From assembly GCA_049608825.1 (NCBI GenBank), contig JBMYXW010000001.1, positions 2,789 to 33,701 of the forward strand: 30,913 bases of DNA, in the 5' to 3' direction. Under the pieces are notes generated by a model, which did no database searches, was not told where the DNA came from, and worked only from the letters and a program-made list of their open reading frames with translations. Of this stretch, positions 1-22,722 are shown one piece after another. The translations under genes were made by a program, and so were the position numbers. The DNA comes from Chitinophagales bacterium. GTDB taxonomy: Bacteria; Bacteroidota; Bacteroidia; Chitinophagales; UBA2359. Each line of letters starts with the position of its first letter. Position 1 is the first letter of the stretch.

Positions 1-3000
1 GTACTTTACAATGCCGAATCGTCCAGCGACCCCGTTTTTTATGGATTCCAAATCGACTCCAAAAGTAACACTTTGCCAACTGCTTGTTATGCCGTAGCCA
101 CTTTACATTTTGAGAATGTAGAAATTATTGGAGACAATGGAGATAAAGCAGCCATATTGCTATATGGTGACCCTGTTTTGGGAGCAGGCGTAGGTACAGA
201 AGGGGTTTGTAATGACCCAACAAACGCATTGGCAGGTTTTAATATAGGAACAACCGATTATGCTGCTTTTCGGGTGAATATTTCGCAGGCAATGGCAAAT
301 ACGACAGGAGATGGGGAAGTATTGAACTATCCAAGTGGTACACTGCCCAATGGTTATTATTACTTGGCGATTCAAGGAGAAAATGGTTCATTGGTGAAAT
401 TTGACCTAAGAATAGAAGTGGATTATCAAGGAACATGCAAGCTTGAAACAAGTTGCGGAGCATGTGATTTGAGTTTTACAGCAAACGACAACTGTTCGGG
501 AGACGGAAGTGCCAATACGGTTATTCAGATTAATGGAGAGATAGACTTAGCGATTAATGAACCCATTGTGACAATAAAAGGAAACCCTGCCTTAGAGGGA
601 AGTGATTATACCATCAATAAAGATAACAAAACCATTTCATTGAATCCAAATGCAGCATCACATGAAGATTATTATGAAATTAAAATAGGCAACAATGTAT
701 GTACTTCAGTCTATCAAGATACGATACAATGTTGTTATTTAGAAACAGATAACACAACGGCTATATCCTTGTGTAAAGGAAATGAATACACTGTCAGCAC
801 CTCCAATGTCCAACTAAATGACGAACAGAATAAGGTATTTTGGGTATTGACAGCAGGTACTTTGGGGGTAAACGATGAAGTGGGAGTCTTCAATGCGCTA
901 AAATCTTATCCAGGTTCATCCATCGTATTTTCAAACGATGGCAGTTTATTGACTGGTACTTACAGTCTTACACCTTACATCGGAACATCCACTCTCAGTA
1001 ATAGAAGCTATACCTCCATTAAAAGTATTTCAAGCAATATCAATACTGGAGAGATTAATACTGACCAAACGGTTGATCCTTTTACTATTGAGGATATTCC
1101 CTTTGACAGCAATACCAAAGTAAAATACACTGTCTCCATTGCAGGAATAGAAGAAGAAGATAAATTGATAGAACCTGCTTATAAATTTCCTGACGGAAAT
1201 GGAGACCAAACAACAATCAAAAAAAGTACTTCAATTGTGGGAGAATTGCAGTTTAGTACCTTGATTGAAGGAAATCCAAATGGAGACTATTCTTTATTTA
1301 TACCAGAGGGTATTGATATAGGTAGTAATATGAAGGTCACTTTTGGAATTGAGATTTTGGATATCCCAATAGGTGCTGTTGCAGAAGATTGTACGGCTTT
1401 TGGCGATCCCATTCTCATTGATATAGTTGCGCCTGTTACTTACACGAAACGAGAGTTCTGTTCAGGGGTGGATGGTTCTGTAATCATTGAATTAAGTGGT
1501 GGTAGTGGTAATTACAACGCATGGGTGGATGGTTCTCCTGTATCCACACCAATATTTGAGATTTCAAATTTGACTCAAGGTGATTCTTACCTTCTCGAAA
1601 TAGAAGATGCTTCTTGTAGTAGTGGTAGTATCTCTAAAAATGAAACCTTCAATTGTGACCCCAGCAACGATTGTATCAACAATGCGATTTCTTTGAATAG
1701 CCAAATTAACGCAACCATCTGTCAATCGGGCTATGCGACTTTCGCTTGTCAAGATTTTGACTACAACCCATTGACAGACGACCAAGCCCCAACAGCCGAT
1801 ATTGTTGGAGGAAATGCTTTGGAATGTGGTACATCCCCTTTCTACGATGTTTGGTTTAACTTTGACATAGACGACACCACACCCGACCTTTGGCTTAATA
1901 TTTATCCAGAAAATTCCAGCGCACAATTTGGTGCAGCTATTTACAGTGGTACACCCAGTCATGTAAATTCTTGTGGTGAGTCTGAATACATTGACTGTTT
2001 GGTGTATGAAGGTTGTTCTATAGGAGAAAATTCTGGTAGTTCTTTGGATATAACAGGTTGTGGCTCGTCTCACACAAGGTTGGATTTAACCCATTTAGAA
2101 ACAGGAATATATCATTTGAGGGTATGGAGAGAAACAGCTGAAGGAGAAGATATTCCTCCAACAGGAGATTTTAGTATTTGTTTGGAATCGACAGAAACAC
2201 ATCCCAATGCACAGGATGGTTGTTCATTCAGTGGTTCAATGGACTTATTGGAAGGCTGTAATGATGATTCTATCATCAATACAGATTATACAACAACCTA
2301 TCCTTGTATTTCCAATGCAGGTATATTGGAAGGAAATGGTTGTGACAATAGTGCTGATTTTTACAACAACACTGCGTTCTATGGATTTGAAATAGATACA
2401 GAGGGCGATAATTGTACTGCTAAGGTAGAGTTGACTTTTGAGAATTTAATGATTGAAGGAGGAGCAGATGCCAAAGTTGAATTATATGGACCTTTCTCCA
2501 GTACAATTTCAACAGGATTGTGTGACACTCCTGTTTTAGAAGAACAAAATATTTCTAATGTAAATCCACTGATTAAGAGTGATTTAGTCGAAGGGATGTA
2601 TTATTTTAGTATTGCAGGATACAAAGGAGCATTGGTTCAGTTTGATTTAAAAATAGAGGTAAACTACAACACTAATTGCAGCTTCAATAGAGACTGTGGA
2701 AGTTGTCCAACAGAACCTACTTTTGAAGTTATTACAGAAGCCACTAATGCTTCTCCTTGCGCCAATCAGAGCTTAACATTAACTGCAAATGTAGATGTTA
2801 GCGATAACTATGATTATAAATGGAATGCACCAGACAATACACTTATTGAGCAAACACAAGTTCCTTTTATTACAATTGACAATCCTCAAACAGGTAATTA
2901 TACAGTTATTGTTACAAATGGAGCAGGATGTTCTGCTGAGGAATCAATCACTATTGATGTATCAGAGAGTTTGCCAGTGATAACTGCCTCTCTCGACAAC

Positions 3001-6000
3001 TGCGATACTTATACTTTGGATGCAGGAGCAGGTTTTGAAACCTATCAATGGAGTATAGGTTCTAATGACTCAATTATTCCAGTCGATAATATCAATGGAA
3101 CCTATACGGTTACAGTCACCAATGAACAGGGATGTACAGGTACAAGTGAGCATACCATAGAAGGCTTTGAAGCAAGTGCAGAGATTGTAGAAGATGGACC
3201 TATTTGTGAAGGAACAATCGTGAATTTCATTGCTGATGGTGGAGTAAGTTATCAATGGGCAGGCCCGAATGGATTTACTTCAACCAAGTCAAACCCCAGC
3301 ACAATTGCAAGTCTCTCCAATGAAGGAATTTACACCGTTACAGTAACAGACAACACGGAATGTACAGAAGTCATCATGGTAGATTTGACAATAGTTCCAA
3401 ATCCTATTCCAACAATCGAAACCCTGCATATAGGCAATGATTGTACAGACTCCAATTATGTATTGGATGCAGGAGCAGTTTTTGTAGCCTATCAATGGTC
3501 AAACGAGCAGACGACTCAAACCATTGCAGGAACAATAGAAGGTATTTATACCATTACTGTCACCAACAATGAAGGCTGTACAGGAACGACCAGTATTGAA
3601 CATATCTTCTATTCTCCACCTTCGGTTGAGATAAAAGGTAAAGAAGTCTTTTGTGAAGAAAATGTAGTATTGACTGCTCAATCCGAACAGGCAGCCTACT
3701 ATGATTGGTCGTCAGGTGATAGCACTGAAACTATTGCCGCAACCAATATAGGTACTTATACTATCACGATTACAGATGAAAATGGATGTACAGGAAGTGC
3801 TTCACATTCTATTGAAGCCTGTCCTCCTTGTTTGGTAGAATTACCTGCAGATTTTTTGATGCCCTGCAATGCGCCTTTAGTGGCTTTGGTAGCAGATACG
3901 ATAATAGGTACTCCTAATAGTTATTTATGGTCAACAGGCGAAAGCAGTCAGAGTATTCATGTTAGCCAACCAGGTATCTATAGTCTAAGTATCGTAGGTG
4001 ATAATTGTGAGTCTGTTGATACTATAGAAGTATTGCCACCACTCGTTTTGTTTTCAAATATAGAGCCTAATCCTGCAGAGATTTGCATAGGAGACAGCAT
4101 AAAATTGGTTTTAACAGAAGATTTCGATGCTTATAATTGGTCAAATGGGGAAACAACTCAAAGTATTATTGCTCAAATAGGCGATTATACTGTAACGGTA
4201 ACAAATGATGAGGGTTGTTCGGGAACAATGAGTGTGGAAGTATCAGAGGATGATTGTACGGTAAATTGTGAGGTGAGTGCTGTGATTACCGCCCCTACTG
4301 CAAGTATTTGTGAAGGGGAAAGTGTTGTTTTGACTGCAAGTGGAGGAGAAAATTTTGAGGGAATGTATGCTTGGTCGAATGGCGATACTGGACAAACAGT
4401 AGATGTCAGTATTGGAGGAACTTATACCGTTACCATTACAGATGAAAGTAATTGCACAGGAACAGGAGAGGTGACTGTTGAAGTAAATCCTTTGCCTATT
4501 CCTTCTATTACAGGGAATACAATTGTCTGTCCTGTAGATGGTTTGACAAGTATTTTGTATGCAGCTCCAATGTCTGAAGGGTATGAATATCTTTGGTCTA
4601 ATGGAGCAATTAGGGACAGTATTGAAGTAAGTGTAGGAGGTGTTTATACTGTAACAGTGACAGATGAGAATACTACTTGTAGTGCAAATACTTCTGTTGA
4701 AGTGATTGAAAACTGTGAAGAAGTTTGTACGATAGAAACTGTGATTGCCCCCGCTTCTGCAAATATTTGCGAGGGAGACTCTATTGTTTTGACTGCAAGT
4801 GTAGAAAATATAGAAGAAAATGTTGAAGCAATGTATGTTTGGTCAAATGGCGAAACGAATCAGACCATTTTAGTAAATCAAGTAGCTACTTATACAGTGA
4901 CTGTCAGCAATGATATTTGTTCAATAAGCACAAATGTTACTATTGGTTCATTGCCAGATATTTCTCTTTCCGCTACTGATTCAGGCACTCCCTGTACCAG
5001 TGACCATTATGTTACTTTAGAAACTATTGCAAAGAATTGGAATACACCTACTTATAAATGGTCGAACAATGCAAGTACTCAAACCATAAACGTTACTCAA
5101 ACGGAGTCTTATACTGTAACAGTGACAGACCGAGGCGGCTGTAGTGCGACTGATTTATTAGCAGTTACAGTATTGTCATTACCGAATCCAGAAATAGAAG
5201 GAAATTTGGAATTTTGCGAAGGTTCAAATACGATTCTTTCAGTTATAGAAACCTACAATAATTACACTTGGTCGAATGGTAGTTCTGAACAAAGTATCAA
5301 TGTCAACATTGCAGGCACTTACACTGTCACTATTCAAGATGACAATGACTGTACAGGTACAGCAGAAGTGACAATTAGTGAGGTTGATAGTTTGACACCA
5401 AATGTTAGCGGAAACGATTTTTGTGAAGGTTCAAGTGCGACACTTTCTGTTGATGAAGTATTTACTACTTATACTTGGTCGAATGGTGACTCTGGACAAA
5501 ATATTGATGTGATTATTGGAGGAACTTACATTGTCACAGTTGAAGATGCAAGTGGTTGTACAGGTACAGGAGAAGTGACGGTTAGTGAAGTTGGTATTTT
5601 GACACCAACGGTCAATGGAAATGATTTTTGTGAGGGTTCAAATACGACTCTTTCTGTTGATGAAGTATTTACTACTTATACTTGGTCGAATGGCGATTTT
5701 GGACAAGAAATTGATGTTACTATTGCAGGCACTTACACCGTCACAGTTGAAGATGCAAGTGGTTGTACAGGTACAGGAGAAGTGACGGTTAATGAAATAA
5801 GTAGTTTGACACCAACGGTAAATGGAGGTGATTTTTGTGAAGGCTCAAATGCGACTCTTTCTGTTCCCGAAACCTTCAATACTTACACTTGGTCGAATGG
5901 CAGTTCTGGAGAAACTACAAGTATTGGTAGTACAGGAATTTATTCGGTAACAGTAACAGATTCTAACGGGTGCAGTGGATTGGGCAGTATTTCAGTTACA

Positions 6001-8982
6001 AGCAACTGTCCAGAAGAAGAATGTGATCCACTTGTGAATTTTGATTTGGAGGATTCTTATTGTTTGAACACGACTTTATATTTGTACGACAGTCTATCAG
6101 TTACTGCGGATAGTTCAGGGAGTTGGTATGTAGCAGCTCCTCCTTCACAGTATAATCACTTTCTAGAAGATGGAATTTTAGAACTCAAAAATCCAGGAGA
6201 ATACACTATTATTTATAAGTTGGATGAATTTACTACCTGTTCAAGGACTATAGATGTGGCTGATCTAAAAGATATAGATTTAAATTACAGTGTGTTTAGT
6301 TGCGAACAACACGATGTTGTGATAGAAATAACTAATCCTGAAATGGATTGGAAGTATCAATGGTCGAATGGAGATACAGATACAAGCATTGCTACAAATA
6401 TCAACACTACTACTGCTTACACTGTGACAGTAACAAATGAAGCAGGTTGTACCACTACTGCTTCAACAACAGTGACCATTGGAGAACTGCCAAATCTTGA
6501 TATATTATTTATTAGTAATCTCAATCTTGGTAATGTAGTTGGAATCACTCAGAGTGACTCAATTACATTAATTGCAGATATAGAGAATGTAAATGAGATA
6601 CCAAATTATGAGTGGAGTACAGGTGAAACAAGTGAGACCATTTCTGTTACACCACTAGAAACAACAACTTACACGCTTCAAGCAACATTGAGTAATGGCT
6701 GTGTCCTTACTACTGAGGTAATTGTAGAAGTAACAATACCTATGAACTGTGTGGATGCGGTAAAAATATGTGATAAAACCAAGAAGTCTTTTATTAGTAA
6801 TGGTTCTGGGGTGGAAGAACTTGAAAATGAAACTATAAGAGGCTGTTTAGCAAATAGTGAGGTAAATTCGATTTGGTTGAAAATTCAAATAGGAATGGAC
6901 AATCCTTGTGACACTCTCTTGTTTTTTACTATTACACCTAATACACCAACAGACAAATATAGCTTTGCGATTTATGATTCGCTATGCGGTAATCTTGATG
7001 CGCCTATTCGATGTACTGATTTTAGAGGAAATCAAGCAACAGGGATAGGTTTGGATCGCTATTCAACAGATGATTCAGAAGAGTGGCTGGATGTGGATGC
7101 AGATGGCTTATTGAGACCTTTATCTGTCCATCCAGAAGATGTGTATTATTTGTTGGTAAATAATCATGGAGATAACGACGGCTTCACCCTCGAATGGAAA
7201 GATAGCGAGGGGGATAGTCCTGCTAATTTGGGTTGTGAAGACATTGCTCCACATACTATTAGTGCTGAAGATGAAATTATTTGTGAAGGTAGTATTGAGT
7301 TTACACACAGTCCAGTTTCAGAATGTGGTGATTATCAATATATTTTAGTGGATAAGGAGGGGCAAATACAAGGCGTTTTTGATGGAATTATTACTGGGGA
7401 TGCCTTAATAACTGGCATTTATACCATTTATGGAATAATTGATTATGCTGGTCTTGAGATTCCCATAGGAGGTACATTGGAGGATTTAACAGGAGATTTT
7501 GAACTTTCAAGTAATTCTATTTTGATAAACAAAACATGTGGTTCATGCTCTTTACAAAAACTAATACCTGAAATAAATAAACGACTCAACGAAGCGAAGC
7601 AGTATCAGATGGAAGAAACAATCATAGATTTGCAAGCAAAAATTGATGCTATAAAATTATATGTATTGGAGGATTCAGAAGGAGCTATACCCGATTTTGA
7701 CATAGATTTCCTAAGTATAGTCATTGATGCGAACAGCCTACAAACCAGCTGTGATTCCACTTATTTTGAGGTTTTTGCAGATTCGATTGTATATGACAAT
7801 TCCAAACCTCGCGAATATGCCTATGTCGGAGAGGATACACTTTCATATACCATTAGTTATCCTGGATGTGGTGAAATTAAAGAACAATTTACCATTGACA
7901 TTCGCCCTCCTCAATGTGGTATAGCCCTAGAGGGGAGCAGCGATTGTGAAACAGTTTATCTTCAGTTAGAAAATCCTATTGGAATAGAGGATAGTTTATG
8001 GGCTTATCAATGTAAAATTGAAGGAAACAATGGAACAAATGGTGAATGGATTCCGATAGAAGATGTTGTTTTGAATCCAAATACAAATTATTCGATTTCT
8101 ATGCAAGCTGTACAAAAGACCAATAATAACATACCTATTTTTCATGGTAGTAATGCCGATGTGTGTGATTATACCCTTACGACTCCCTCTCTTGATTTGC
8201 TATCTGTTGATATAGAAGAAACTTGTTTTGAGAATGGAGACGCTTCTTTAACTGCCATTGTAGGAGGGAGTATTATGGATGTTGCTTATCAATGGTCTTC
8301 AGGCGAAACGACCCCTCAAATTGAAGTACCTCAATCCGTAACAACAAAGGATTACAGTGTAACTGTGACAGGAATAGGAACTAATTGTGTCACAACTGAT
8401 TCTGCATACAATGTTGGATCCCCTGATATAAGTATTGAATATGCAGATGAGAGTCGTTGTTTGGCAATCCTCAGCATTAAGAATGAGATTCCTGAAAGTA
8501 TTACCTGCTACAATGGGGAGGAAGAAAAAGAGGAGCAGATTTCAGAGGAAGATTGTTGGTGGAACGAGGAAGAACAGCGGTATAAGTGCAAACTGACCTT
8601 GCTTCAACCCTATGAGGAAGAGAGTCAGATATTTGTTCAAGACAGTTCAGGGTGTAGAGATAGCATTACTATCTTCAATTGTGTACCTGATGTAAAAGTT
8701 GTTAAACCAAATCCTTCAACTGGTTTGTTCACAGTAGAATTGACGGGTATTCCCATGGAAACGCCGATTCGATATGCTGTATTTAGCTTTGACCGTCGAT
8801 TGGTATTGAAGTCGGATGGTTATGAGAACCCCTCCAATCAAATATTTGATAATTGGCGAACCATCAACATTGACTTGGATGACCGTTTTCCAAGTGGAAT
8901 GTATTTTGTGCGTTTTGAAGTAAAAATAGAAGGATTGGAAAATCCTATCTATTTTTATGAAAAATTATTGAAGATAAGGTAA
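1..8982 (+). CDS. Giant T9SS type A sorting-domain surface protein/adhesin (5'-partial), with Cys-rich PPC-like domains and about 18 SprB/PKD-like Ig repeats
   Basis: Frame 1 is open from base 1 (VLYNAESSSDPVFYGFQIDSKSNTLPT...), so the TTG at 73 is not the real start. There are about 18 YxWS(N/T)G..Q.I.V...GTYTVTVT..xGC repeats and PxNDxCxxA-type and NCxDAxxxC...GFTLEW domains. The C-terminus KPNPSTGLFTVEL...GMYFVRF...KLLKIR matches the T9SS type A CTD pattern. Confidence 0.9.
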   Translation, partial: VLYNAESSSDPVFYGFQIDSKSNTLPTACYAVATLHFENVEIIGDNGDKAAILLYGDPVLGAGVGTEGVCNDPTNALAGFNIGTTDYAAFRVNISQAMANTTGDGEVLNYPSGTLPNGYYYLAIQGENGSLVKFDLRIEVDYQGTCKLETSCGACDLSFTANDNCSGDGSANTVIQINGEIDLAINEPIVTIKGNPALEGSDYTINKDNKTISLNPNAASHEDYYEIKIGNNVCTSVYQDTIQCCYLETDNTTAISLCKGNEYTVSTSNVQLNDEQNKVFWVLTAGTLGVNDEVGVFNALKSYPGSSIVFSNDGSLLTGTYSLTPYIGTSTLSNRSYTSIKSISSNINTGEINTDQTVDPFTIEDIPFDSNTKVKYTVSIAGIEEEDKLIEPAYKFPDGNGDQTTIKKSTSIVGELQFSTLIEGNPNGDYSLFIPEGIDIGSNMKVTFGIEILDIPIGAVAEDCTAFGDPILIDIVAPVTYTKREFCSGVDGSVIIELSGGSGNYNAWVDGSPVSTPIFEISNLTQGDSYLLEIEDASCSSGSISKNETFNCDPSNDCINNAISLNSQINATICQSGYATFACQDFDYNPLTDDQAPTADIVGGNALECGTSPFYDVWFNFDIDDTTPDLWLNIYPENSSAQFGAAIYSGTPSHVNSCGESEYIDCLVYEGCSIGENSGSSLDITGCGSSHTRLDLTHLETGIYHLRVWRETAEGEDIPPTGDFSICLESTETHPNAQDGCSFSGSMDLLEGCNDDSIINTDYTTTYPCISNAGILEGNGCDNSADFYNNTAFYGFEIDTEGDNCTAKVELTFENLMIEGGADAKVELYGPFSSTISTGLCDTPVLEEQNISNVNPLIKSDLVEGMYYFSIAGYKGALVQFDLKIEVNYNTNCSFNRDCGSCPTEPTFEVITEATNASPCANQSLTLTANVDVSDNYDYKWNAPDNTLIEQTQVPFITIDNPQTGNYTVIVTNGAGCSAEESITIDVSESLPVITASLDNCDTYTLDAGAGFETYQWSIGSNDSIIPVDNINGTYTVTVTNEQGCTGTSEHTIEGFEASAEIVEDGPICEGTIVNFIADGGVSYQWAGPNGFTSTKSNPSTIASLSNEGIYTVTVTDNTECTEVIMVDLTIVPNPIPTIETLHIGNDCTDSNYVLDAGAVFVAYQWSNEQTTQTIAGTIEGIYTITVTNNEGCTGTTSIEHIFYSPPSVEIKGKEVFCEENVVLTAQSEQAAYYDWSSGDSTETIAATNIGTYTITITDENGCTGSASHSIEACPPCLVELPADFLMPCNAPLVALVADTIIGTPNSYLWSTGESSQSIHVSQPGIYSLSIVGDNCESVDTIEVLPPLVLFSNIEPNPAEICIGDSIKLVLTEDFDAYNWSNGETTQSIIAQIGDYTVTVTNDEGCSGTMSVEVSEDDCTVNCEVSAVITAPTASICEGESVVLTASGGENFEGMYAWSNGDTGQTVDVSIGGTYTVTITDESNCTGTGEVTVEVNPLPIPSITGNTIVCPVDGLTSILYAAPMSEGYEYLWSNGAIRDSIEVSVGGVYTVTVTDENTTCSANTSVEVIENCEEVCTIETVIAPASANICEGDSIVLTASVENIEENVEAMYVWSNGETNQTILVNQVATYTVTVSNDICSISTNVTIGSLPDISLSATDSGTPCTSDHYVTLETIAKNWNTPTYKWSNNASTQTINVTQTESYTVTVTDRGGCSATDLLAVTVLSLPNPEIEGNLEFCEGSNTILSVIETYNNYTWSNGSSEQSINVNIAGTYTVTIQDDNDCTGTAEVTISEVDSLTPNVSGNDFCEGSSATLSVDEVFTTYTWSNGDSGQNIDVIIGGTYIVTVEDASGCTGTGEVTVSEVGILTPTVNGNDFCEGSNTTLSVDEVFTTYTWSNGDFGQEIDVTIAGTYTVTVEDASGCTGTGEVTVNEISSLTPTVNGGDFCEGSNATLSVPETFNTYTWSNGSSGETTSIGSTGIYSVTVTDSNGCSGLGSISVTSNCPEEECDPLVNFDLEDSYCLNTTLYLYDSLSVTADSSGSWYVAAPPSQYNHFLEDGILELKNPGEYTIIYKLDEFTTCSRTIDVADLKDIDLNYSVFSCEQHDVVIEITNPEMDWKYQWSNGDTDTSIATNINTTTAYTVTVTNEAGCTTTASTTVTIGELPNLDILFISNLNLGNVVGITQSDSITLIADIENVNEIPNYEWSTGETSETISVTPLETTTYTLQATLSNGCVLTTEVIVEVTIPMNCVDAVKICDKTKKSFISNGSGVEELENETIRGCLANSEVNSIWLKIQIGMDNPCDTLLFFTITPNTPTDKYSFAIYDSLCGNLDAPIRCTDFRGNQATGIGLDRYSTDDSEEWLDVDADGLLRPLSVHPEDVYYLLVNNHGDNDGFTLEWKDSEGDSPANLGCEDIAPHTISAEDEIICEGSIEFTHSPVSECGDYQYILVDKEGQIQGVFDGIITGDALITGIYTIYGIIDYAGLEIPIGGTLEDLTGDFELSSNSILINKTCGSCSLQKLIPEINKRLNEAKQYQMEETIIDLQAKIDAIKLYVLEDSEGAIPDFDIDFLSIVIDANSLQTSCDSTYFEVFADSIVYDNSKPREYAYVGEDTLSYTISYPGCGEIKEQFTIDIRPPQCGIALEGSSDCETVYLQLENPIGIEDSLWAYQCKIEGNNGTNGEWIPIEDVVLNPNTNYSISMQAVQKTNNNIPIFHGSNADVCDYTLTTPSLDLLSVDIEETCFENGDASLTAIVGGSIMDVAYQWSSGETTPQIEVPQSVTTKDYSVTVTGIGTNCVTTDSAYNVGSPDISIEYADESRCLAILSIKNEIPESITCYNGEEEKEEQISEEDCWWNEEEQRYKCKLTLLQPYEEESQIFVQDSSGCRDSITIFNCVPDVKVVKPNPSTGLFTVELTGIPMETPIRYAVFSFDRRLVLKSDGYENPSNQIFDNWRTINIDLDDRFPSGMYFVRFEVKIEGLENPIYFYEKLLKIR
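5209..6000 (+). repeat. Intragenic 207-bp (69-aa) tandem repeat, about 4 units
   Basis: The FCEGS motifs recur at a 207-nt period (unit starts 5209, 5416, 5623, 5830). Units 2 and 3 share exact DNA blocks, e.g. tctgttgatgaagtatttactacttatacttggtcgaatgg and gtcacagttgaagatgcaagtggttgtacaggtacaggagaagtgacggtt. Confidence 0.9.
8680..8982 (+). other. T9SS type A C-terminal sorting domain of ORF1
   Basis: CVPDVKVVKPNPSTGLFTVEL...RYAVFSFDRRLV...PSGMYFVRF...KLLKIR. A basic tail follows an acidic passenger. Confidence 0.8.
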
Positions 8983-9010
8983 GGATAACACATAAGAGTA
9001 TGTAGAATTG

Positions 9011-9043
9011 AAGAACCCGCTTTATGGCGGGTTTTTTATTTTT
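9011..9043 (+). terminator. Intrinsic (Rho-independent) terminator after ORF1
   Basis: Stem aacccgc (9014-9020) / gcgggtt (9027-9033), loop tttatg, followed by a T-rich tract, about 30 nt after the ORF1 stop. Confidence 0.85.
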
Positions 9044-9117: not shown

Positions 9118-9142
9118 CATCCATAACATCCAATTCCAAAAC

Positions 9143-15100: not shown

Positions 15101-18100
15101 CAATTTGTGGTGCAGGTGACATCATCTTAGCACCAATGGGAGCAGGCGAAGGAGCTACTTATAACTACTATTTAGACCCTAATGCGATTATTCCAGCCAC
15201 TCCTGCAAGTGGAAGTGTATGGGTAAACAGCGAAATAGTTGGGCAAAGAATTATCTATATTATTGCTACAACTGCAGAGGGCTGCGAATCAGCACCTTTG
15301 GCAGTCAGTACCTATTCTTACGAAAATATTGCAGTAAGTAACATAACAACTCTCTGCAATGAATCAGATAATTCCTATACCGTATTTTTCACTATTTCTG
15401 GTGGTAATGGTGTTTACACTGTGGATGGTGCTTCTGCTCCTGATAATTTCACAAGTGCACCAATCGCTCAGGGTACAGGGTACTCATTCGTAATTGATGA
15501 CGATTCATCACTTCCTTCTTGCGAACCTTTGACACTTTCGGGATTATCGCCAGATTGTACAGATGGTATATCGGCAGTAGATGATTTTGCTTCTACCGAA
15601 ACAGGAGAATCTGTTATTATTGATATTTTGGAAAATGATAGTGGATGTAATTTGAGTATTGGAGGAATAGTAGTGGCTCCTTCTTGTGGCGAGATTACAA
15701 CTATTAATCCTGAGACAGGGGAGGTAACATACTTAGCAGATACCGATACACAATGTACCGAAGATACTTTTGTGTATGAAGTTATTGACTGTAATGGAGC
15801 TACAGATGAAGCTACGGTTACGATTTTTATTTCCCAAGAAACCGCCTTAGCGGTAGAAGTAATTAGAAACTGTGAGGGAGCAGAAGAAACGGGAACTTAC
15901 GAATTGGAGGTTATCATCACTGGTGGAGCTCCACCCTTTACTATTTCGGGAAGTATTAATGAGGTATTACCTAATTATGGAAATACATTTGCAATTATAT
16001 CAGATACAGAATCATATACAATAAACGTAGTTGATGCAAATGGAGATGAGTTTTACAGAGAAGGTGGGAAAATTCCTTGTGTCAAATTTGCTCCTTGTCT
16101 AGATTCAATAGCCATAAATGGTAACTTTTGTCCCACAGAAAACCCTACTGTTACTCTAATTGCTGTAACTATACCTTCAAGTTTCGACTTTTCTTATGAA
16201 TGGTCAACAGGCGAAAATACTCAAACGATTGAAGTAAGTGAAGTTGGCTTTTATTCAGTTACAGTATTAAATACCGATGGTTGTGGTGGAATGGATTCTG
16301 TAGAAATTATTGAAGATTGCCCACAAGACTGCGAACCACTTATTTTCACAGACTCCAATACCCAACTAAACGGCAATGCACAAGCCAACACTGAAAATGC
16401 AAACTGTTGGACTTTAACCGATGAAAGTACATCTGGGCAGGCAGGGTCAATATGGTCACAGCAAAAAGTTTTGTTGAATGAACCGTTTGTTCTCACAGCT
16501 TTTTTGAGTACAAATTTAGATGGTTCGGATGGTTTCACTTTTACCCTTCACAACGATGATTCTGCATTGACAGCATTGGGTTCAAATGGTGAGGGTTTGG
16601 GTTATGGACCGAATTTAACGGATGCAGTAACAGCTACCATTCAACCTTCTATTGCAGTAGAATTAGATACCCACGAAAATCCGACATTAGATAGTGAGCC
16701 AACTTTCAACCACATTGCTGTAAACGAAAATGGCAATATGGAATCAGTGACAACTCCTATTGAAATTTCCAGCTTTGAAAATGGACAAAGCCATGAACTC
16801 AAAGTAGTGTGGAATCCCACGACTTTTGAATTGATATATTACTTCGATGGAGAGATAAAAGGCATTTATGAAAAAGATATTGTTACCGAAATTTTTGGAA
16901 GTGAAAACAGTATCTATTGGGGCTTTACAGCAGCAACGGGTAACAGTGTGAACACACACCAAATTTGTGATGTTCAAATGACCAATTGTGCAACAGAACT
17001 CACTGCAATAGACGACACCTACACCACCTGCTCCAATACTTCCTTCACTTTCAATCCAGTAGAAAACGACTTAGGGGATTGCATTGAGATAACAGGACTT
17101 ATTGTAAGCGGCAATGACATCACATTGGAGCAAATCGACAACGACATCACTTATACACCCACAACTGATTTTGCAGGAACAATCGACTTTGAGTACATCA
17201 TTACGGATTGTTTTGGACAAATGGACACGGCTTTGGTGACGATTGTAGTACTTGACACCACTCCAATTGAAGCAGTGAATGACACAGTTTATATTTTCAA
17301 TACACAAGATTCACCTTCTTTTACTTTTAATATATTGGAAAACGACATTGGAGAGAACATCATTTTGATTGCAGATAGCTTCAATCCACCAACATCTATT
17401 GGTGATTTTCCAGAGGTGTCAGAGTTTGGAGAAATCAACTTTATTCCTGCTCCAAGCATTGAAGGCACTTTTACAATAGAATACGAAATTCAAGGTCAAT
17501 GCGACCAAATAGACATCGCAACTGTTACGCTGATTATTACAGAAGAAAGCATTCCAAATAGTAATGCGGACGAACTCGTTGATATTATTTTAGACGATTG
17601 TATTTCTTTTCAAAATGCAGTCATTAATTGTGCCGATGTTGCCATAGCACAATTTGATACAACCATCACCGAGGGCATTTACAACAATCCATTTACAAAA
17701 GGAATTGCCCTGACAACAGGTAGTGTAGAATTGGGTTTATATTCACCTAATACAAGTGGAAGTGCAGGACTCAGCAATGGTGCTTCTGGTGATGCCGATT
17801 TGGAAACAGAACAGTTTCAAACCTTCAATGCTTGTGCTTTGGAATTTGATTTCACAGCCAACACCGAATCTATTAGTTTCCGTTATTGGTTTGGCTCGGA
17901 AGAATATCCAGAATGGGTAAATACTCAATTCTCCGACCGAATGGGGATATTTATCAATGGAACGGGTTTTGATTCACTCACCAATATCGCACTTGTACCT
18001 GATACAACTATTCCCGTAGGGGTTGATGGGATTAACCACCTAAATAATACCTCCTATTTTGTTGAAAACGAAGCCAATGCCTTGCCTCAATACGATGGAT

Positions 18101-21100
18101 TTACGATTCCTTTAGAGGCAATCACCAATAACTTAACTATTGGTGAAACCTACCACATCAAAATTGTTATTGCAGATGTGAATGATGCAATTTACGATTC
18201 AGGTTTGTTCATTGAAGCCAACACCGAATCCAATGACTTTGAATTAATCGTATCGGAAGATACCACCATCAATGCAGGGGAAAGCACCCAATTGTCTGCT
18301 GAAGTGTTGAACACCACAGCAGAGGTGACTTACACATGGACTCCAACGGAAACACTGGACAATCCAAATATTGCCAACCCTATTGCAAGTCCTACGGAAA
18401 CGACAACTTATTCAGTGACTGCAACAATAGGTGGTTGCGAAAAAACAAATACGGTTACTGTCACGGTAAATTCTATTCCCTGCGAAGGATTATCAGTAGG
18501 CATACTACCAAGCATAGACCCTTATGTTTGTTTTGGCGAGAATATAGGAGGAACGACTTCCATTATAGCAGAAGGATTTACTTTGAGAGAAGGAGATGTT
18601 TTGGGTTATGTATTGCAGGATGAAAATGGCAATATTTTGGCGTATCGAACAGAAGATGCCAATTTTATTTTTGAAGAAATTGAAGACGGACAGTACAATA
18701 CCGAGTATTTTGTACTCGCAATTGCAGGAACAGACAATGGCAGTGGAGAAGTAGATTTGACAGGTGAATGTGTGGATAAGAGTAATTTATTTCCTGTTGT
18801 GTTTTTGGAAAAAATCAATGTTTCGACTGCAATTGTTTGTGAAAACAACGAGCAATTTATTGAGGTAACCTTAGAAGGAGGATTGCCTGCTTATTCAGAT
18901 TCTGAAACGTATGAATTGATAGGCTATGAAAGCCTTATTGTTGAAGGTGAGACAGTAAGGATTGGACCTTTTGAAGGAATGGAAATATTAGAAGTATTGG
19001 ATGGAAATGGTTGTTCTGTGAGTACAGAAGTAAATCTATATCAATTGACGATTTCTTTGGATAACCTAGAAGGGGAAGATGTGACCAACAATACAATTAT
19101 TTTGGATGTAGGAGATGCTCGACAATTGTGGGGTAATGTGAATAATAGCGAAAACCCAAGCATAAATTATACTTGGTCACCTATTGCTGGTTTTGGACAA
19201 TTATTGAACATCAATGCCACAGAACCTGATACGATTACACACACACTAACCGTAGATATAGACGATTTTTGTTCATTACAAGCAGAGGTAACGGTGATCA
19301 TTTTGCCGACAGCCTATGATTGTTTGGATGCTATTGTTCCTTGCAATAATGAACCCATTGTATATAATAGCAATGGAAAGGGAGAGGAAGAAATTTTGGG
19401 GACAGACAAAGTAGGTTGTTTGGTAGAAGGAGAACATTATTCAACTTGGATTCGATTGCAGATTGACAATACTACTTCCGATGGGGAACACCTTACTTTT
19501 ACGATTACTCCAAATGATGGACAAAGAGACTATGATTTTAACTTATACAAAGCTGATGATTGCAATGATTTGGAAGGAATTACACGCTGCTCTTTTGCCC
19601 CTACTTCAATGGAATCTGCTAGTACAGGGCTAAATGAGGTAGATACAGATGATGAAGACACAGACAATGGTTTCGCTCGTTATGTGGCAGTGACTGGAGG
19701 CGAAATTTATTATTTATTAATAGACAATTTTGGAGGAAATGCTCAAGGATTTACCCTCGAATGGACCAATCCCAATGTGTTTTTTAATTGTGACACAATT
19801 CCCGAATGTTATGCAGATGCAGGAACGGCAAGTAGTCCTAAAGATACGTATTGTTCAACAGAAAGTTATATAATAAGTGTTGAAGGAGAATATGAAGGTG
19901 AAGATTTTAACCAAGCTTATTTTTTCTTAGATGAGGACAGTAATATTGTGTCTCAACCCAATAGTCAGACATCAGGCACATATTATTTTGCTTACCTCAA
20001 CTCTCAAGAGATTATTGACTTTAACGAGTACAATACACTTGCAGATATAGGAACAGCTATTTTGGAAGGTGCTTGTATGGATACAAGTAATATTGCTTCG
20101 TTTGAAATAATAGCCTCTCCTCCAAAACCAACCTTTACTTCAATCTCTTGTGATCAAGAAGCTTTTTATATTGAAGTAGAAGAGTCAGATGCTATTATCA
20201 GATGGTACAGTAACGTAGCTTTGAATGATATGATAGGGGAGGGGAATCCGTTTCCTGTAACCGAAGCAGGTACTTATTACGTCACTCAAACTTTGAATAG
20301 TTGCGAGAGTGAAGCACAGGAGGTAGTAGTGACTGAAGCAGACTTCGTGTGTTTGGGTGAATGTCCTGAGAATTTGGTTCAGAATTTTAGTTTTGAAGAA
20401 AGAGTTGGATGTCCTAGTGTTAGTGGACAAATCGAAAGGTCAGCTTTTTGGAGTTTTGTACCTGGAATTACGAATGCTCCTGATTACTTCAATAATTGTA
20501 ATGCTACTACCAATAATTACGAAACACCTCAAAATATAGTTGGTACTCAAATACCTTTTGAAGGTACAGCTTATGCAGGTTTGATGGCATACAATCAAGC
20601 CAACAACACTTTAATAAATCGAGAATACATCCAAACAGAGTTGACTGCACCTCTCATTGAAGGGCAAAGCTATTGTGTCTCTATGCAGGTTAGCCTTGCA
20701 GAAAACAGTCAATTTGCGATTGACAATTTGGGTTTATATTTTTCGGGAAATCAAATAACAAGTAATAGCATTGAAGGATTCTTAGAACCTCAAATTGTGC
20801 ATCAGGGATTTTTGGAAGATACCGATGAATGGATGGAGGTCAAAGGTACATTTACAGCTACTGCTGGGCTACAATATTTGTCAATTGGCAATTTTGCGCT
20901 CAACAATGGGGTAAAAGAAGTTAATTCCGATGGTAATGGAGAAGCATATTACTACATTGACATGATTGAGATTCGTCCAACCAATGAGATAGGAAGTTTG
21001 TCAGTATTTGATATGGACAACAATCAACTCAATACAGAAAGCAATACGATTGTGATTTGTGAAGGAGAAACTATCTGTTTAGATGCAGAAGTAACAAACA

Positions 21101-22722
21101 CTAATTTCACTTGTAGTTTTGCATGGGCAGACTCTACAAATGTTGTTCAACAGTTCAGTTATTGTGATACCCCCACAAAAGATACTACTGTTTATTCTTT
21201 TTGGGTCAGCAATGGGTTGTGTGAAGTAGAGGATAGTTTGGTAGTCATCTTTGGAGAAGAAATGGAAGAAGGAGAACCATGTACTTTATCTATTTGCCCA
21301 CAAATAGAGGAGTTAATGGCGAACTTGAATACCCTTTCCTTGACTGTACCTTTTGAAAGGTCGAAAAAAGAAGTGAGTTGGGAAGAATTGGTTCAAGATG
21401 AAATTGACCTTATAGCGGAAGCAATAGGGATAGAAAAAAGCAAGATAGGAGAGGCACAGATTAGTTTTTTTAGCCTAAACTCTGACTGCAATCCTGATTA
21501 CTACCAAATCATAGGAAATCAAGTTATTTACAATAATTCTGATTCTTGTTATATCTATATGGGACAAGATGAACTGACCTATACACTTAGTTTTCCTTCA
21601 TGTGGTACAGTAACTCGAAGTGTAAAGATAGAGCTTCTTTGCCCTAAATTTGAAGTTCAAGGATTAGATAGTGATTGCCTAACTGCTTCTTTCCAACTTT
21701 CGGATTTAAGTATGAGTATTTCTTCTCAAAACACATTGAATCACTCTGAAATTTCTGCATTGGGATGGTCTGCTGAATGGAAAATTGAAGAATTGGATGA
21801 TGTTTGGAGAGACGAAGATAGTGCTCCTATTTTCTTAGAACCCAATACAGATTACATCGTATTGGTACGCATGGTAAAAGCGGATACTCAACCTCTCACC
21901 CCTATTTTTCATGGCAGTTATGCCGAAACCTGTGGAGCTTCTATTACAACTCCTCCTTTGGACGGAATGCCAGTAAGTATTATTGAGCGATGTTTGGAAG
22001 ATGGAGGAGTGGAATTGACAGCAATAGTAGAAAGTTCTGATGCTATTGACGACTTTGTTATGGAGTGGTCAACAGGAGAAACAATACGGCAAATCATTGT
22101 CTATCCACCTTTTGACGAAAATTATTGGGTCAATATTTTGCGAATTAGTGATGGATGTATAGGAATAGACTCTGTTTCAGATATTGGTCCTCCCGATGTA
22201 TTTGTTGAATACACCGATGCAAGTCGATGTGTGGCTACGATTGGGGTTAGAAATACGATTCCTCAAAGCATTACTTGTCACAAACAACCGATTCCCGAAG
22301 AGGATTGTTGGTGGAATCCAACCGAACAAGCCTACAAATGTGAAATCAATCTGCTTGAAACAACTTCTGATACTACTTATGTGGTAGTCAATGACTTCAA
22401 AGGCTGTGAGAACAGTGTGAAACTATTCAGATGCCAACCCGATATTCGTGTAATCAAACCAAACCCTTCTAAACGATTGTTTACCATAGAATTAACAGGT
22501 ATTCCTATCAAAACACCAATTCATTATTATGTTTACAGCATAGATGGTCGAATGGTTATGGACTCCGAAAATATGCGGGATTCGGGCAGCCAACCTTTGG
22601 AGAATTGGCGGACGCTGAATATTGATTTGGACGAGCGTTTTGTGAGTGGAATGTATTTTGTACAGTTTTTTGTGGAGGGTGTGTCAGAGCCTTTGGTAGC
22701 GAAATTGTTGAAGCAGGAATAG
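9196..22722 (+). CDS. Giant (4508 aa) multidomain T9SS type A sorting-domain adhesin: signal peptide, LRR, PPC-like, beta-helix, SprB/PKD-like Ig repeats, cadherin-like Ig, L-type lectin, choice-of-anchor L, CBM-like domain, CTD
   Basis: Sec signal MNKTTTLYLYLLLLLLSFNVNFASA. Motif-recognisable domains are listed as separate features. The C-terminus is KPNPSKRLFTIEL...YSIDGRMV...SGMYFVQF...KLLKQE. Confidence 0.92.
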   Translation: MNKTTTLYLYLLLLLLSFNVNFASAFVSPLMSDNSLNSREFVMSPIPSSPPPQIQINSWAANHTVLKSWQPIPKPKGQFLMFPPSCIEADSLELVAFYNATGGDDWTDNSGWLVDDVSEWFGVTLSVDGCGVAELNMFIDINTGNNLVGNIYDFNLSNLEILNLKINQLTGEIPNFNLPSLEVLWLGRNTLTGDIPNFDLPNLKVLSLDFNALTGEIPNFDLPNLEALALYDNALTGEIPNFDLPNLEYLGLQYNLLTGEIPNFDFPNLETLYSYDNALTGEIPNFNLPNLERLGLSDNALTGEIPNFDLPNLNYLVLSDNELTFAGLVPHVQNYNTNSNFTTLFYAPQATIPLLLSNNTLYVEVGGNLSNNHYTWYKDGIEIPNMPVDGDSSWVVTESGNYYVEVTNDSITNPSISVQNLVLVSDELFVQVNSPNDNCLDATSLDPLMVAVYGSYSNVGATIEGSDLLPDCFNDNTLDNTVWFTFTGDGNAYNISTTDCSASSTAMSNTQMAIFEGGNCNSLSEVDCSEDIEVGTDLFSAITLPTTNGTEYYLMVDGNGGNSGDFCLDVSLVETCSSDLGGTIWVTTTDDNGDDDNPTVGSLRAAIKCANETEGANDIHFNLTGTAPFVFQPTIEYPSLIDSSTIIDATTQSNFSLGDVELDGSMLDLVNGLEILGNDCSIYGLYIHSFPSYGIFVEESNNVQIGGDESEHHGNVISNNGTQTSESSSFGGGLRIVDCENVTIYNNKIGTDVNGLTGFGNISSGITITNGSNFFIGGSGDNQGNIISNNLSYGIWGNLNDSDIQGNKIGTDISGTIDLGNGLEGININGVNLSIGGSNINEGNLISGNDQGGIRIVNFSENITITGNLIGVNINGDEPLNNDGAGILIFWGNNILIGGNTNLASNILNDPISLDGGDNITVQGNKMGVDIQGEALLGNSQTHGIGVSPGAQNVLIGGNNSSQANIIGGHTTAGIILFIDGTTGDFPSDIEMKGNFIGTDITSTIDLGNNIGISGHLQNNNNIIGGLLEGEGNTIAFNNTAIRFYENGTGIEMRQNNIFCNNKTYDFSELIDVSNIPNPPIIVEATTTTLTGTAEVGATIEIFVQDHTLCSGNTTCQGNYLATVMVDASTGEWSYEGAFTIGDIITTTATNSSNNTSEFSACSQICPKINPVIAGETFFCEGETITLTANDFSDFTAKYIWSTGETEQGISINTGGTYTVTVTDGGICSGTASIEVIQNSNPFAEILAGDEVFCSGTGLDIFVQIPSNSTSVWSNGDEAQITTIELGGIYTVTVTNENNCSTTSSVFIEELPQPNPEIVGDFNFCEGKNTILSLTEVYVDYLWSNGSIDSNIEVSENGVYTVSVSDGNICVGIASVEVVANEIPTLIISSSNGTLLCTGDTLSLTANSNATDVEYIWSNGTSGQEIEITEGGDYTVTVKDSNGCSNIASITIDTSPSPSPSIDGELGFCEGGNTVLSTGNAYSSYLWSTGEQGFSIEVTEAGDYGLTVTNANGCSGQKEVSVIENELPVVFIEGESTLCDPSILLNVEPSNEDFTYQWSTDVGATSQEIIVNTIGTYTVTVTDFNGCSATDEHQVDVCIEGCDVVADFILQDTICTSVALTIEELLTESTTTGGEWQQTYLDGTPVVVTDDFLIFPEVGTYTITYFVESPSDPNCNDTDTKIIYAGEPDFPSWSTEGDNYEICETNLPIAVFPDNEGGYWCCGDFGNCKATDESCFTIIDGQMYFDPIGNSSAVESYDLYHITTFEKCSSTIKKELSIYAQPAPPEVNPSTITLCENEILDVFIFMTAPFQYSDQLFTFNVYNENDELLIEGISPNDDMVDLSNLLTSIGTYTFLVRSVNGTCESEAVEVSIFVEGCQDCPDELFIFSATCLDEFGQSTITIFPIDTDDNYTVTAGGIELGENVFEFQSGSDVTVMLTSITTDCSSSALIEIPTDVPVLQLNNEASQVTICGAGDIILAPMGAGEGATYNYYLDPNAIIPATPASGSVWVNSEIVGQRIIYIIATTAEGCESAPLAVSTYSYENIAVSNITTLCNESDNSYTVFFTISGGNGVYTVDGASAPDNFTSAPIAQGTGYSFVIDDDSSLPSCEPLTLSGLSPDCTDGISAVDDFASTETGESVIIDILENDSGCNLSIGGIVVAPSCGEITTINPETGEVTYLADTDTQCTEDTFVYEVIDCNGATDEATVTIFISQETALAVEVIRNCEGAEETGTYELEVIITGGAPPFTISGSINEVLPNYGNTFAIISDTESYTINVVDANGDEFYREGGKIPCVKFAPCLDSIAINGNFCPTENPTVTLIAVTIPSSFDFSYEWSTGENTQTIEVSEVGFYSVTVLNTDGCGGMDSVEIIEDCPQDCEPLIFTDSNTQLNGNAQANTENANCWTLTDESTSGQAGSIWSQQKVLLNEPFVLTAFLSTNLDGSDGFTFTLHNDDSALTALGSNGEGLGYGPNLTDAVTATIQPSIAVELDTHENPTLDSEPTFNHIAVNENGNMESVTTPIEISSFENGQSHELKVVWNPTTFELIYYFDGEIKGIYEKDIVTEIFGSENSIYWGFTAATGNSVNTHQICDVQMTNCATELTAIDDTYTTCSNTSFTFNPVENDLGDCIEITGLIVSGNDITLEQIDNDITYTPTTDFAGTIDFEYIITDCFGQMDTALVTIVVLDTTPIEAVNDTVYIFNTQDSPSFTFNILENDIGENIILIADSFNPPTSIGDFPEVSEFGEINFIPAPSIEGTFTIEYEIQGQCDQIDIATVTLIITEESIPNSNADELVDIILDDCISFQNAVINCADVAIAQFDTTITEGIYNNPFTKGIALTTGSVELGLYSPNTSGSAGLSNGASGDADLETEQFQTFNACALEFDFTANTESISFRYWFGSEEYPEWVNTQFSDRMGIFINGTGFDSLTNIALVPDTTIPVGVDGINHLNNTSYFVENEANALPQYDGFTIPLEAITNNLTIGETYHIKIVIADVNDAIYDSGLFIEANTESNDFELIVSEDTTINAGESTQLSAEVLNTTAEVTYTWTPTETLDNPNIANPIASPTETTTYSVTATIGGCEKTNTVTVTVNSIPCEGLSVGILPSIDPYVCFGENIGGTTSIIAEGFTLREGDVLGYVLQDENGNILAYRTEDANFIFEEIEDGQYNTEYFVLAIAGTDNGSGEVDLTGECVDKSNLFPVVFLEKINVSTAIVCENNEQFIEVTLEGGLPAYSDSETYELIGYESLIVEGETVRIGPFEGMEILEVLDGNGCSVSTEVNLYQLTISLDNLEGEDVTNNTIILDVGDARQLWGNVNNSENPSINYTWSPIAGFGQLLNINATEPDTITHTLTVDIDDFCSLQAEVTVIILPTAYDCLDAIVPCNNEPIVYNSNGKGEEEILGTDKVGCLVEGEHYSTWIRLQIDNTTSDGEHLTFTITPNDGQRDYDFNLYKADDCNDLEGITRCSFAPTSMESASTGLNEVDTDDEDTDNGFARYVAVTGGEIYYLLIDNFGGNAQGFTLEWTNPNVFFNCDTIPECYADAGTASSPKDTYCSTESYIISVEGEYEGEDFNQAYFFLDEDSNIVSQPNSQTSGTYYFAYLNSQEIIDFNEYNTLADIGTAILEGACMDTSNIASFEIIASPPKPTFTSISCDQEAFYIEVEESDAIIRWYSNVALNDMIGEGNPFPVTEAGTYYVTQTLNSCESEAQEVVVTEADFVCLGECPENLVQNFSFEERVGCPSVSGQIERSAFWSFVPGITNAPDYFNNCNATTNNYETPQNIVGTQIPFEGTAYAGLMAYNQANNTLINREYIQTELTAPLIEGQSYCVSMQVSLAENSQFAIDNLGLYFSGNQITSNSIEGFLEPQIVHQGFLEDTDEWMEVKGTFTATAGLQYLSIGNFALNNGVKEVNSDGNGEAYYYIDMIEIRPTNEIGSLSVFDMDNNQLNTESNTIVICEGETICLDAEVTNTNFTCSFAWADSTNVVQQFSYCDTPTKDTTVYSFWVSNGLCEVEDSLVVIFGEEMEEGEPCTLSICPQIEELMANLNTLSLTVPFERSKKEVSWEELVQDEIDLIAEAIGIEKSKIGEAQISFFSLNSDCNPDYYQIIGNQVIYNNSDSCYIYMGQDELTYTLSFPSCGTVTRSVKIELLCPKFEVQGLDSDCLTASFQLSDLSMSISSQNTLNHSEISALGWSAEWKIEELDDVWRDEDSAPIFLEPNTDYIVLVRMVKADTQPLTPIFHGSYAETCGASITTPPLDGMPVSIIERCLEDGGVELTAIVESSDAIDDFVMEWSTGETIRQIIVYPPFDENYWVNILRISDGCIGIDSVSDIGPPDVFVEYTDASRCVATIGVRNTIPQSITCHKQPIPEEDCWWNPTEQAYKCEINLLETTSDTTYVVVNDFKGCENSVKLFRCQPDIRVIKPNPSKRLFTIELTGIPIKTPIHYYVYSIDGRMVMDSENMRDSGSQPLENWRTLNIDLDERFVSGMYFVQFFVEGVSEPLVAKLLKQE
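9655..10182 (+). repeat. 66-bp (22-aa) leucine-rich repeat array, 8 units, plant-like GxIP type, preceded by an LRR N-cap
   Basis: Consensus FDLPNLExLxLxxNxLTGEIPN. The 24-mer ttaacaggtgagattccaaatttt is exact at 9700, 9832, 9898, 9964, 10030 and 10096, with 2 mismatches at 9766. N-cap DSLELVAFYNATGGDDW...W..DDVSEWFGVT starts at 9463. Confidence 0.95.
10950..12400 (+). other. Right-handed parallel beta-helix region of ORF2 with a CSLREA-like N-terminal motif
   Basis: GSLRAAIKCAN at 10996, then repeated NxIxGNxIGTDxxG...GN...G and IGG....GNxISGN motifs. Confidence 0.8.
15570..17550 (+). other. Three cadherin-like/tandem-95 Ig repeats flanking the lectin domain
   Basis: AVDDFASTETGESVIIDILENDSG, AIDDTYTTCSNTSFTFNPVENDLG and AVNDTVYIFNTQDSPSFTFNILENDIG match the A.DD...........L.ND pattern. 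Confidence 0.7.
16345..16980 (+). other. L-type (legume-like) lectin domain in ORF2
   Basis: QLNGNA...LT....GQAGSIWSQQKV...DGSDGFTFTLHN...GEGLGYG...SIAVELDTHEN...HIAV...HELKVVWNP...YFDG...YWGFTAATG...HQI. Confidence 0.85.
17680..18225 (+). other. Choice-of-anchor L domain in ORF2
   Basis: GIALTTG...GDADL...NACALEFDF...ISFRYWFGSEEYPEWVNTQFSD..GIFING...NIALVP...INH..N...QYDGFT...GETYHIKIVIADVND..YDSGLFIEA. Confidence 0.85.
20362..20980 (+). other. Galactose-binding-like/CBM-like jelly-roll domain in ORF2
   Basis: NLVQNFSFEE..GCP...APDYFNNC...GTQIPFEGTAYAGL...REYIQTELTAPL..GQSYCVSMQVSLA...EWMEVKGTFTA...YLSIGNF...AYYYIDMIEI, a common Bacteroidota secreted-protein module. The ligand is unknown. 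Confidence 0.65.
22432..22722 (+). other. T9SS type A C-terminal sorting domain of ORF2
   Basis: CQPDIRVIKPNPSKRLFTIEL...YSIDGRMV...SGMYFVQF...KLLKQE, paralogous to the ORF1 CTD. Confidence 0.8.

Follow-up and report, generated by a model that had tools for sequence, protein, structure and literature searches.

Two very long reading frames stand in tandem on the plus strand of a 30,913-nucleotide (nt) stretch of DNA from a Chitinophagales bacterium (hereafter the window; GenBank assembly GCA_049608825.1, contig JBMYXW010000001.1, positions 2789-33701). They raise the question whether giant surface proteins can present different binding heads on one shared C-terminal base, and whether such a base would assemble them into appendages resembling the grappling hooks of Aureispira. 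The two open reading frames, ORF1 and ORF2, are probably old paralogues in a small, genus-restricted family of type 9 secretion system (T9SS) surface adhesins, in which a conserved cassette is joined to variable heads. The finding is real and fairly ordinary for such proteins, and a hook-like assembly appears improbable.

Segments shared by the two genes

The source is a metagenome-assembled genome, 69% complete and divided into 961 contigs. ORF1 occupies window positions 1-8982 (2993 codons) and is open at its 5′ end; its frame runs on for 929 codons upstream to the contig start (contig positions 1-2788, L021), giving at least 3922 amino acids (aa) with no start codon, and a short run of N lies in the frame just before window position 1. 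ORF2 (9196-22722) encodes a complete protein of 4508 aa, whose N-terminus, with a basic residue, a Leu-rich hydrophobic core and an ASA motif, reads as a typical Sec signal peptide. The spacer of 213 nt between the genes contains a terminator-like hairpin with a T run, in agreement with the terminator proposed in the initial annotation of this DNA. The segments on which the comparison of the two genes depends are the following.

1-8982, + strand: ORF1, 2993 codons from the 3′ part of a gene with 3922 codons or more, 5′-open both at the start of the window and at that of the contig
2716-6738, + strand: ORF1 array of PKD/immunoglobulin (Ig)-like repeats, ~15-18 copies with a period of ~70-78 aa, of the GhpA/SprB class (GhpA, PDB 9flp, E 5.8e-64)
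6748-7197, + strand: ORF1 NCxDA domain, a predicted jelly-roll resembling PPC and collagen-binding domains
7537-7695, + strand: ORF1 D0, predicted helical linker, unconserved (9% identical to D0 of ORF2)
7696-8685, + strand: ORF1 D1-D4, four predicted Ig-like beta-sandwich domains of the family-specific block that precedes the C-terminal domain (CTD)
8686-8979, + strand: ORF1 divergent, type-A-like T9SS CTD (KPNPS...GMYFV...KLLK)
9009-9038, + strand: intergenic hairpin with a T run, resembling an intrinsic terminator
9196-22722, + strand: ORF2, complete gene of 4508 aa, with a Sec-type signal peptide at 9196-9270
12439-14205, + strand: ORF2 Ig-like array, ~7-8 repeats of the GhpA/SprB class
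19321-19764, + strand: ORF2 NCxDA domain, a predicted PPC-like jelly-roll
21280-21453, + strand: ORF2 D0, predicted helical linker
21454-22437, + strand: ORF2 D1-D4, four predicted Ig-like domains of the pre-CTD block, with 9 of the block's 11 invariant Cys residues, the other two lying in D0
22438-22719, + strand: ORF2 divergent, type-A-like T9SS CTD

By BLASTP of the ORF1 protein (P0001) against that of ORF2 (P0002), exactly three classes of segment are common to both. The tails align over residues 2579-2991 and 4093-4506, respectively, at 40.7% identity (E 2.9e-90), the NCxDA domains over residues 2202-2401 and 3324-3525 at 33% identity (E 2e-19), and the Ig-like repeat arrays over residues 1017-2246 and 1101-1668 at 30-36% identity (up to 36% over 560 aa, best E 6e-65). 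The order of the segments, Ig array, NCxDA domain, block and CTD, is the same in both genes. The initial annotation had recognized the first two classes and held that everything else differs, which is contradicted by the repeat arrays, while its description of dissimilar heads is borne out: ORF2 carries leucine-rich repeats (LRRs), an L-type lectin domain, Big_9/cadherin-like domains and a choice-of-anchor L domain, as opposed to PKD and Ig-like domains in ORF1.

The tail had been described as a shared base of ~480 aa, and the blocks are indeed 482 aa (7534-8982) and 480 aa (21280-22722) long, with clearly homologous sequences. The first ~58 aa, however, corresponding to D0, are only 9% identical, and the conserved unit is therefore closer to 420 aa. 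With domain boundaries taken from the structural model described below, identity between the two genes climbs steadily towards the C-terminus, from 33% in D1 through 35% in D2, 38% in D3 and 46% in D4 to 54% in the CTD. The motifs that had first drawn attention to the tails (PIFHGS, EEDCWWN..Q.YKC and YxYxGxDxLxYT) all correspond to invariant alignment columns. Where ORF1 and ORF2 share a residue, their codons are identical in a proportion of 0.48, compared to 0.45 expected from codon usage, which indicates that the synonymous sites are saturated and the duplication is old. The same equality rules out a recent conversion of one 3′ end by the other, and the similarity of the tails is, as far as the codons tell, maintained at the protein level.

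The conserved cassette and its family

The AlphaFold2 model of the block, built on nine family sequences (mean predicted local distance difference test score, pLDDT, of 79), consists of the short helical D0, the beta-sandwiches D1 (residues 59-121), D2 (122-228), D3 (229-302) and D4 (303-386), and a final beta-sandwich (387-480). In a Foldseek search of the PDB, the best matches to this model are multi-domain strings of the Ig, FN3 and cadherin types, among them titin I65-I70, DSCAM, contactins and fibronectin. Among the four full-length copies 111 columns are invariant, of which 11 are Cys, and invariant Cys residues flank the predicted domain boundaries in pairs (108/133, 218/238 and 293/317), which suggests that neighboring domains may be stapled together by disulfides. 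The pre-CTD block matches nothing in Pfam at E ≤ 5 or in NCBIfam at E ≤ 1, and no relative in the PDB is found by sequence, whether with a single sequence or with the profile, apart from the CTD match described below; an ESM Atlas search leads no further than weak hits (scores ≤ 0.87) in clusters of Ig, PKD and cadherin domains.

When 1.84e9 representative proteins were scored with a profile built from both pre-CTD blocks, only nine matches reached E ≤ 1e-30. The matches that span most of the block are ORF1, ORF2, the ORF2 orthologue P0003 (4799 aa) in genome G002, P0005 and P0019 in genome G001, apparently two fragments of a single gene lying on separate contigs, and P0006/P0027, P0008 and P0009 from metagenomes. 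The last of these, a protein of 398 aa, has, as read by eye, a start like that of DUF1800-type proteins and switches abruptly to a D2 closely like that of ORF1; a chimera, made in assembly or in gene calling, is the probable explanation. The remaining matches cover either columns ~240-345 only (D3, a generic WSxGxT Ig repeat) or columns ~84-220 (D1/D2, Big_9-like), and these proteins end in unrelated type-A or type-B tails. The D2 motifs W..KIE and PIFHGS and the D4 motif EEDCWWN..YKC occur nowhere outside the family in the same set. By their sequences, D2 and D4 are thus private to the family, and D1 and D3 are beads of an ordinary kind, resembling the generic Big_9-like and Ig repeats found in many T9SS cargos.

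The family is tiny. Among 40 related genomes the full block is confined to the same genus, with one copy in G002 and two genes in G001, and the complete 7.8-Mb genome of another member of the genus (G003) contains none. An ORF2 orthologue with a different tail was also sought in G003 and not found, the sole match there being a shared jelly-roll domain. Copy numbers per genome accordingly range from zero to two, and a search for related loci over the genome contigs returned the G002 locus alone.

Within this narrow range the upstream parts differ. The ORF1-type architecture has a head of a super-repeat (~500-780 aa, with PPC-like units) and a P-domain, followed by ~15-18 Ig repeats. The ORF2 type consists of LRR, PPC-like, beta-helix-like, Ig-repeat, Big_9, L-type lectin, cadherin-like, choice-of-anchor L, NCxDA, Ig_7 and jelly-roll segments. 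The ORF2 orthologues P0003 and P0019, from two sister species, retain the last ~1400 aa at 48-60% identity and lack the LRRs and the lectin, and P0003 carries additional beta-helix blocks. Contig C458 of G001 represents a third lineage, its block being 29% identical to those of both ORF1 and ORF2. L022 is a mosaic in which the NCxDA domain is present twice, D0 and D1 are missing and the second NCxDA copy directly abuts D2, and L023 (positions 5071-7839) encodes a short member of ~915 aa that has no giant head and is composed of a signal peptide, a PPC-like domain, an NCxDA domain, the block and the CTD. The L023 gene is interrupted by several frame changes on a contig of 1.97x coverage, which may reflect either pseudogenization or a fault in the assembly. 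The initial annotation had envisaged a modular family in which one block stands behind different N-termini, and this holds in that the block occurs behind four or five architectures; a broad family, on the other hand, is not what the nine matches, the single uncultured marine genus with a few metagenome fragments and the low copy numbers describe.

The CTDs are probably divergent members of the type-A class. Matches to PF18962 and TIGR04183 have E-values of 2e-5 to 5e-3, just under the curated cut-offs: the ORF2 CTD reaches 22.2 bits for TIGR04183 (cut-off 23) and 25.3 bits for PF18962 (cut-off 27), and the ORF1 CTD 21.0 bits for PF18962. The PNP, GMY.V and KL.K motifs can be read in the sequences. 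An alignment of the family profile is also obtained with residues 757-850 of 9whd, the C-terminal sorting domain of a GH167 enzyme of known structure (E 0.003). No TIGR04131 or CHU_C match, indicative of a type-B CTD, is obtained on the C-terminal pieces at E ≤ 1-5. The genome encodes components of the T9SS, including SprA (SprA_N, 457 bits), PorU (1338 bits) and four PorP-family proteins, and has at least 150 type-A CTDs in 4.2 Mb at 69% completeness, an unusually large T9SS secretome; both CTDs of this study score below all 150 listed.

Taken together, each protein would comprise three parts: a variable multi-domain binding head, a GhpA/SprB-class Ig-like array with the PPC-like NCxDA jelly-roll, and the ~420-aa conserved cassette, made of four Cys-rich Ig-like beta-sandwiches (D1-D4) and the divergent type-A CTD. 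By analogy with the type-A cargo of other Bacteroidota, the proteins would be exported by Sec, their CTDs recognized by the T9SS and cut off by PorU, and the new C-termini fixed to the outer face of the cell, where D1-D4 could form a cell-proximal stalk that keeps the head away from the surface. Export competence combined with a cell-proximal stalk would be the most likely role of the cassette. The cassette would be under purifying selection that is stronger nearer the CTD, while the heads would change through gain, loss and duplication of domains. As the cassette is kept and the heads are rebuilt, the notion of swapped heads on a shared base describes how the family evolves and not a demonstrated assembly unit.

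Several observations weigh against this interpretation or against a distinct base within it. The N-terminus of ORF1 is missing from the contig, and with it any signal peptide. The CTD scores just below the cut-offs make export by the T9SS likely, not proven, and the sequence does not tell anchoring from release after removal of the CTD. A search of sequencing runs of any kind, not aimed at RNA, listed near-identical DNA in seawater metagenome DNA runs only. The block is, in its predicted structure, a string of ordinary Ig-like beads, which weakens the claim of a special base; the identity of D1-D3 (33-38%) is about that of the Ig arrays (30-36%) and the NCxDA domains (33%), with clearly higher conservation in D4 and the CTD alone, so that the data do not call for a special role of the block as a whole. 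Finally, at 69% completeness of the genome the copy number is a lower bound.

Some of these points would be accommodated by another explanation, in which the shared tail has no function of its own and is what has diverged least since a tandem duplication of the whole gene; constraint, from the need for secretion, would fall on the CTD alone or possibly also on D4, and D1-D3 would be ordinary spacer beads. The equal identity of D1-D3 and the other shared segments, the co-linear order of array, NCxDA domain, block and CTD, the resemblance of D1 and D3 to generic repeats of unrelated cargo and the lack of D0 and D1 in L022 would all be in line with it. Nevertheless, a remnant would hardly be expected to persist behind four or five upstream architectures, the ~915-aa short member included, or to keep 111 invariant columns and D2 and D4 motifs seen in no other proteins, and this explanation is rather unlikely compared to that of old paralogues with a selected cassette.

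Heads, NCxDA domain and neighboring genes

The heads contain further features beyond the shared segments.

760-2322, + strand: ORF1, one copy of the ~500-780-aa super-repeat with PPC-like CxxA...WF..F...YHLRVW units (29-30% identity, E 1e-39 and 1e-22)
9574-10194, + strand: ORF2 leucine-rich repeats, which the orthologues P0003 and P0019 do not have
10921-12375, + strand: ORF2 putative parallel beta-helix repeats, named from the sequence pattern, matching the P0003 beta-helix blocks and with no Pfam model hit
16354-16986, + strand: ORF2 L-type (legume) lectin domain, which the orthologues lack
17572-18225, + strand: ORF2 choice-of-anchor L domain (E 1e-54)

Further copies of the ORF1 super-repeat and a proprotein-convertase P-domain (E 9e-10) are located upstream of the window in L021; the super-repeat is seen by pairwise alignment, while a self-BLAST of full-length ORF1 gave no N-terminal repeat matches. 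The LRR cassette at the tip of ORF2, missing from both orthologues, points to a recent acquisition in this lineage. The set of predicted binding modules, LRR, L-type lectin, choice-of-anchor L, Big_9/cadherin-like, PKD and P-domain, gives the heads an adhesin-like character.

The NCxDA domains are a genuine pair at the positions first assigned to them, yet they are not specific to the family. The NCxDA profile matches 27 of 301 sampled Bacteroidota genomes (22 of 144 genera), so the domain is widespread in the T9SS cargo of the phylum. It is typically situated right after the signal peptide in proteins of ~700 aa with a type-B (CHU_C) CTD (among L025-L032), which are often present as adjacent paralogue pairs, and it is also found in a 2237-aa protein of the same genome with a type-B-like tail (contig C48, L033:66-6779). 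These occurrences rule out the NCxDA domain as a part of the base. It has no match in Pfam and no NCBIfam model. The AlphaFold2 model (pLDDT 79, predicted template modelling score 0.79) gives weak Foldseek matches with template modelling (TM) scores of 0.41-0.63, the best being to the pre-peptidase C-terminal (PPC) domain of Bacillus anthracis collagenase (5sv5, E 4.8e-4, TM 0.41/0.56) and to the ColG collagen-binding domain. From this predicted fold the NCxDA domain is best read as another binding module.

The tandem order of ORF1 and ORF2 is not conserved, as G002 has a single gene in a different neighborhood. There, a gene for a 975-aa NACHT-LRR protein (STAND NTPase; L016:16475-19402, minus strand) lies directly downstream of the ORF2 orthologue, which is also flanked by unannotated ORFs. 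In the window, ORF2 is followed by ruvC (minus strand) and by genes for an LPG_synthase_TM protein, a DUF3108 protein, an alpha/beta hydrolase, an HTH protein, HupE/UreJ and an NOV_C protein with a C5 methyltransferase. No gene related to T9SS anchoring is found among these downstream genes; the region upstream of ORF1 falls off the contig. At the contig end (28761-30864, minus strand) the NOV_C-domain protein adjoins the C-5 cytosine DNA methyltransferase, and the two are probably a restriction-modification-like pair.

The grappling-hook question and known systems

In marine Bacteroidota, giant T9SS adhesins are numerous and fast-evolving, and most of them have no annotation. One such protein, GhpA of Aureispira, forms heptameric hooks, has reported inter-domain disulfides and is encoded upstream of the PorP and PorE genes ghpB and ghpC (bioRxiv 10.1101/2024.01.29.577165), and it has been described as a type-B, PorP-anchored cargo (PMC12998431). 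Like GhpA of Aureispira sp. CCB-QB1, ORF1 and ORF2 are giant proteins, probably Sec/T9SS cargos, of a marine Bacteroidota with homologous Cys-containing Ig-like repeats and a distal adhesin-like head. In phmmer searches their Ig arrays match the GhpA chain (PDB 9flp_A) with E-values of 5.8e-64 and 5.5e-69, respectively, in 13 stretches each.

These likenesses allow for a model in which the block acts as an oligomerization domain or basal anchor and the Ig repeats of several protomers, homologous to those of the GhpA stem, align into a rigid filament with tips that differ between ORF1 and ORF2; the invariant Cys residues at the domain boundaries also recall the GhpA disulfides, the pairing in the present proteins being only inferred. 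Several features set the two proteins apart from GhpA. Neither residues 3300-4508 of ORF2 nor the block profile match the 5898-aa GhpA chain, so the last ~480 aa, block and CTD, are without detectable similarity, and the CTD is type-A-like where that of GhpA is type B. A PorP or PorE homologue is present neither downstream of the two genes nor beside the orthologue in G002, the region upstream of ORF1 being off the contig. The heads are built of different domains, and there are ~16 repeats in ORF1 and ~7 in ORF2 compared to 52 in GhpA. The repeat class, moreover, is shared by well above one hundred further protein clusters, and the similarity to GhpA is therefore not specific. ORF1 and ORF2 are thus, by sequence, related to GhpA through a class of repeat and are not members of its family. 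The hook-like role that had been put forward as a hypothesis finds no backing in the CTD type, the adjacent genes or the repeat number, and multimers of this kind are quite improbable. The same low probability is given to the narrower proposal that D1-D4 and the CTD, especially D4 with its EEDCWWN..YKC motif and the co-conserved CTD, would be a docking or oligomerization base for interchangeable heads on a multimeric GhpA-like stalk.

The proteins could also be set free in sea water, acting as giant lectin-like or adhesive factors in soluble form, with the block only stabilizing the C-terminus until CTD cleavage. This would agree with the soluble secretion of some type-A CTD cargo in other Bacteroidota and with the lack of a dedicated anchor gene found nearby, but is very unlikely in view of the long Ig stalk and distal binding head typical of surface-retained adhesins and the PorU encoded in the genome.

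Should the cassette turn out to be an oligomerization or anchoring base, the grappling-hook concept would reach beyond type-B, PorP-anchored proteins, and there would be a second, type-A-CTD route to such appendages with LRR, lectin and beta-helix heads in one case and P-domain and PPC super-repeat heads in the other. As favored above, a stalk-forming export cassette in old paralogues, the locus illustrates instead how one small lineage-specific family may evolve, the secretion-proximal cassette being kept and the heads rebuilt between sister species. It also brings forward two modules that have no Pfam model, the family-private D2/D4 and the widespread NCxDA domain, which merits a family definition.

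Among other known systems, the gliding adhesins SprB and RemA of Flavobacterium johnsoniae are likewise very large, repeat-rich T9SS surface proteins that form paralogous families with variable binding parts. SprB, however, has a type-B CTD and a cognate PorP/SprF gene, neither of which is seen at ORF1 and ORF2, and the SprB repeats (PF13573) have no match in whole-protein or piecewise Pfam scans of both ORFs. The ~700-aa CHU_C proteins are T9SS cargo with the same NCxDA jelly-roll at ~38-40% identity, but in these the domain follows the signal peptide directly and is succeeded by a type-B CTD tail without the D1-D4 block. The closest parallels to the end of the cassette are the solved GH167 enzyme 9whd, to whose CTD the family profile aligns with shared PNP, GxY and K..K motifs, and, perhaps, the Porphyromonas gingivalis gingipain RgpB, in which an immunoglobulin-superfamily beta-sandwich directly precedes the beta-sandwich CTD. 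In contrast to such cargo, it is four Ig-like domains, not one, that are conserved along with the CTD in ORF1 and ORF2, and the protein they carry is a giant adhesin rather than an enzyme.

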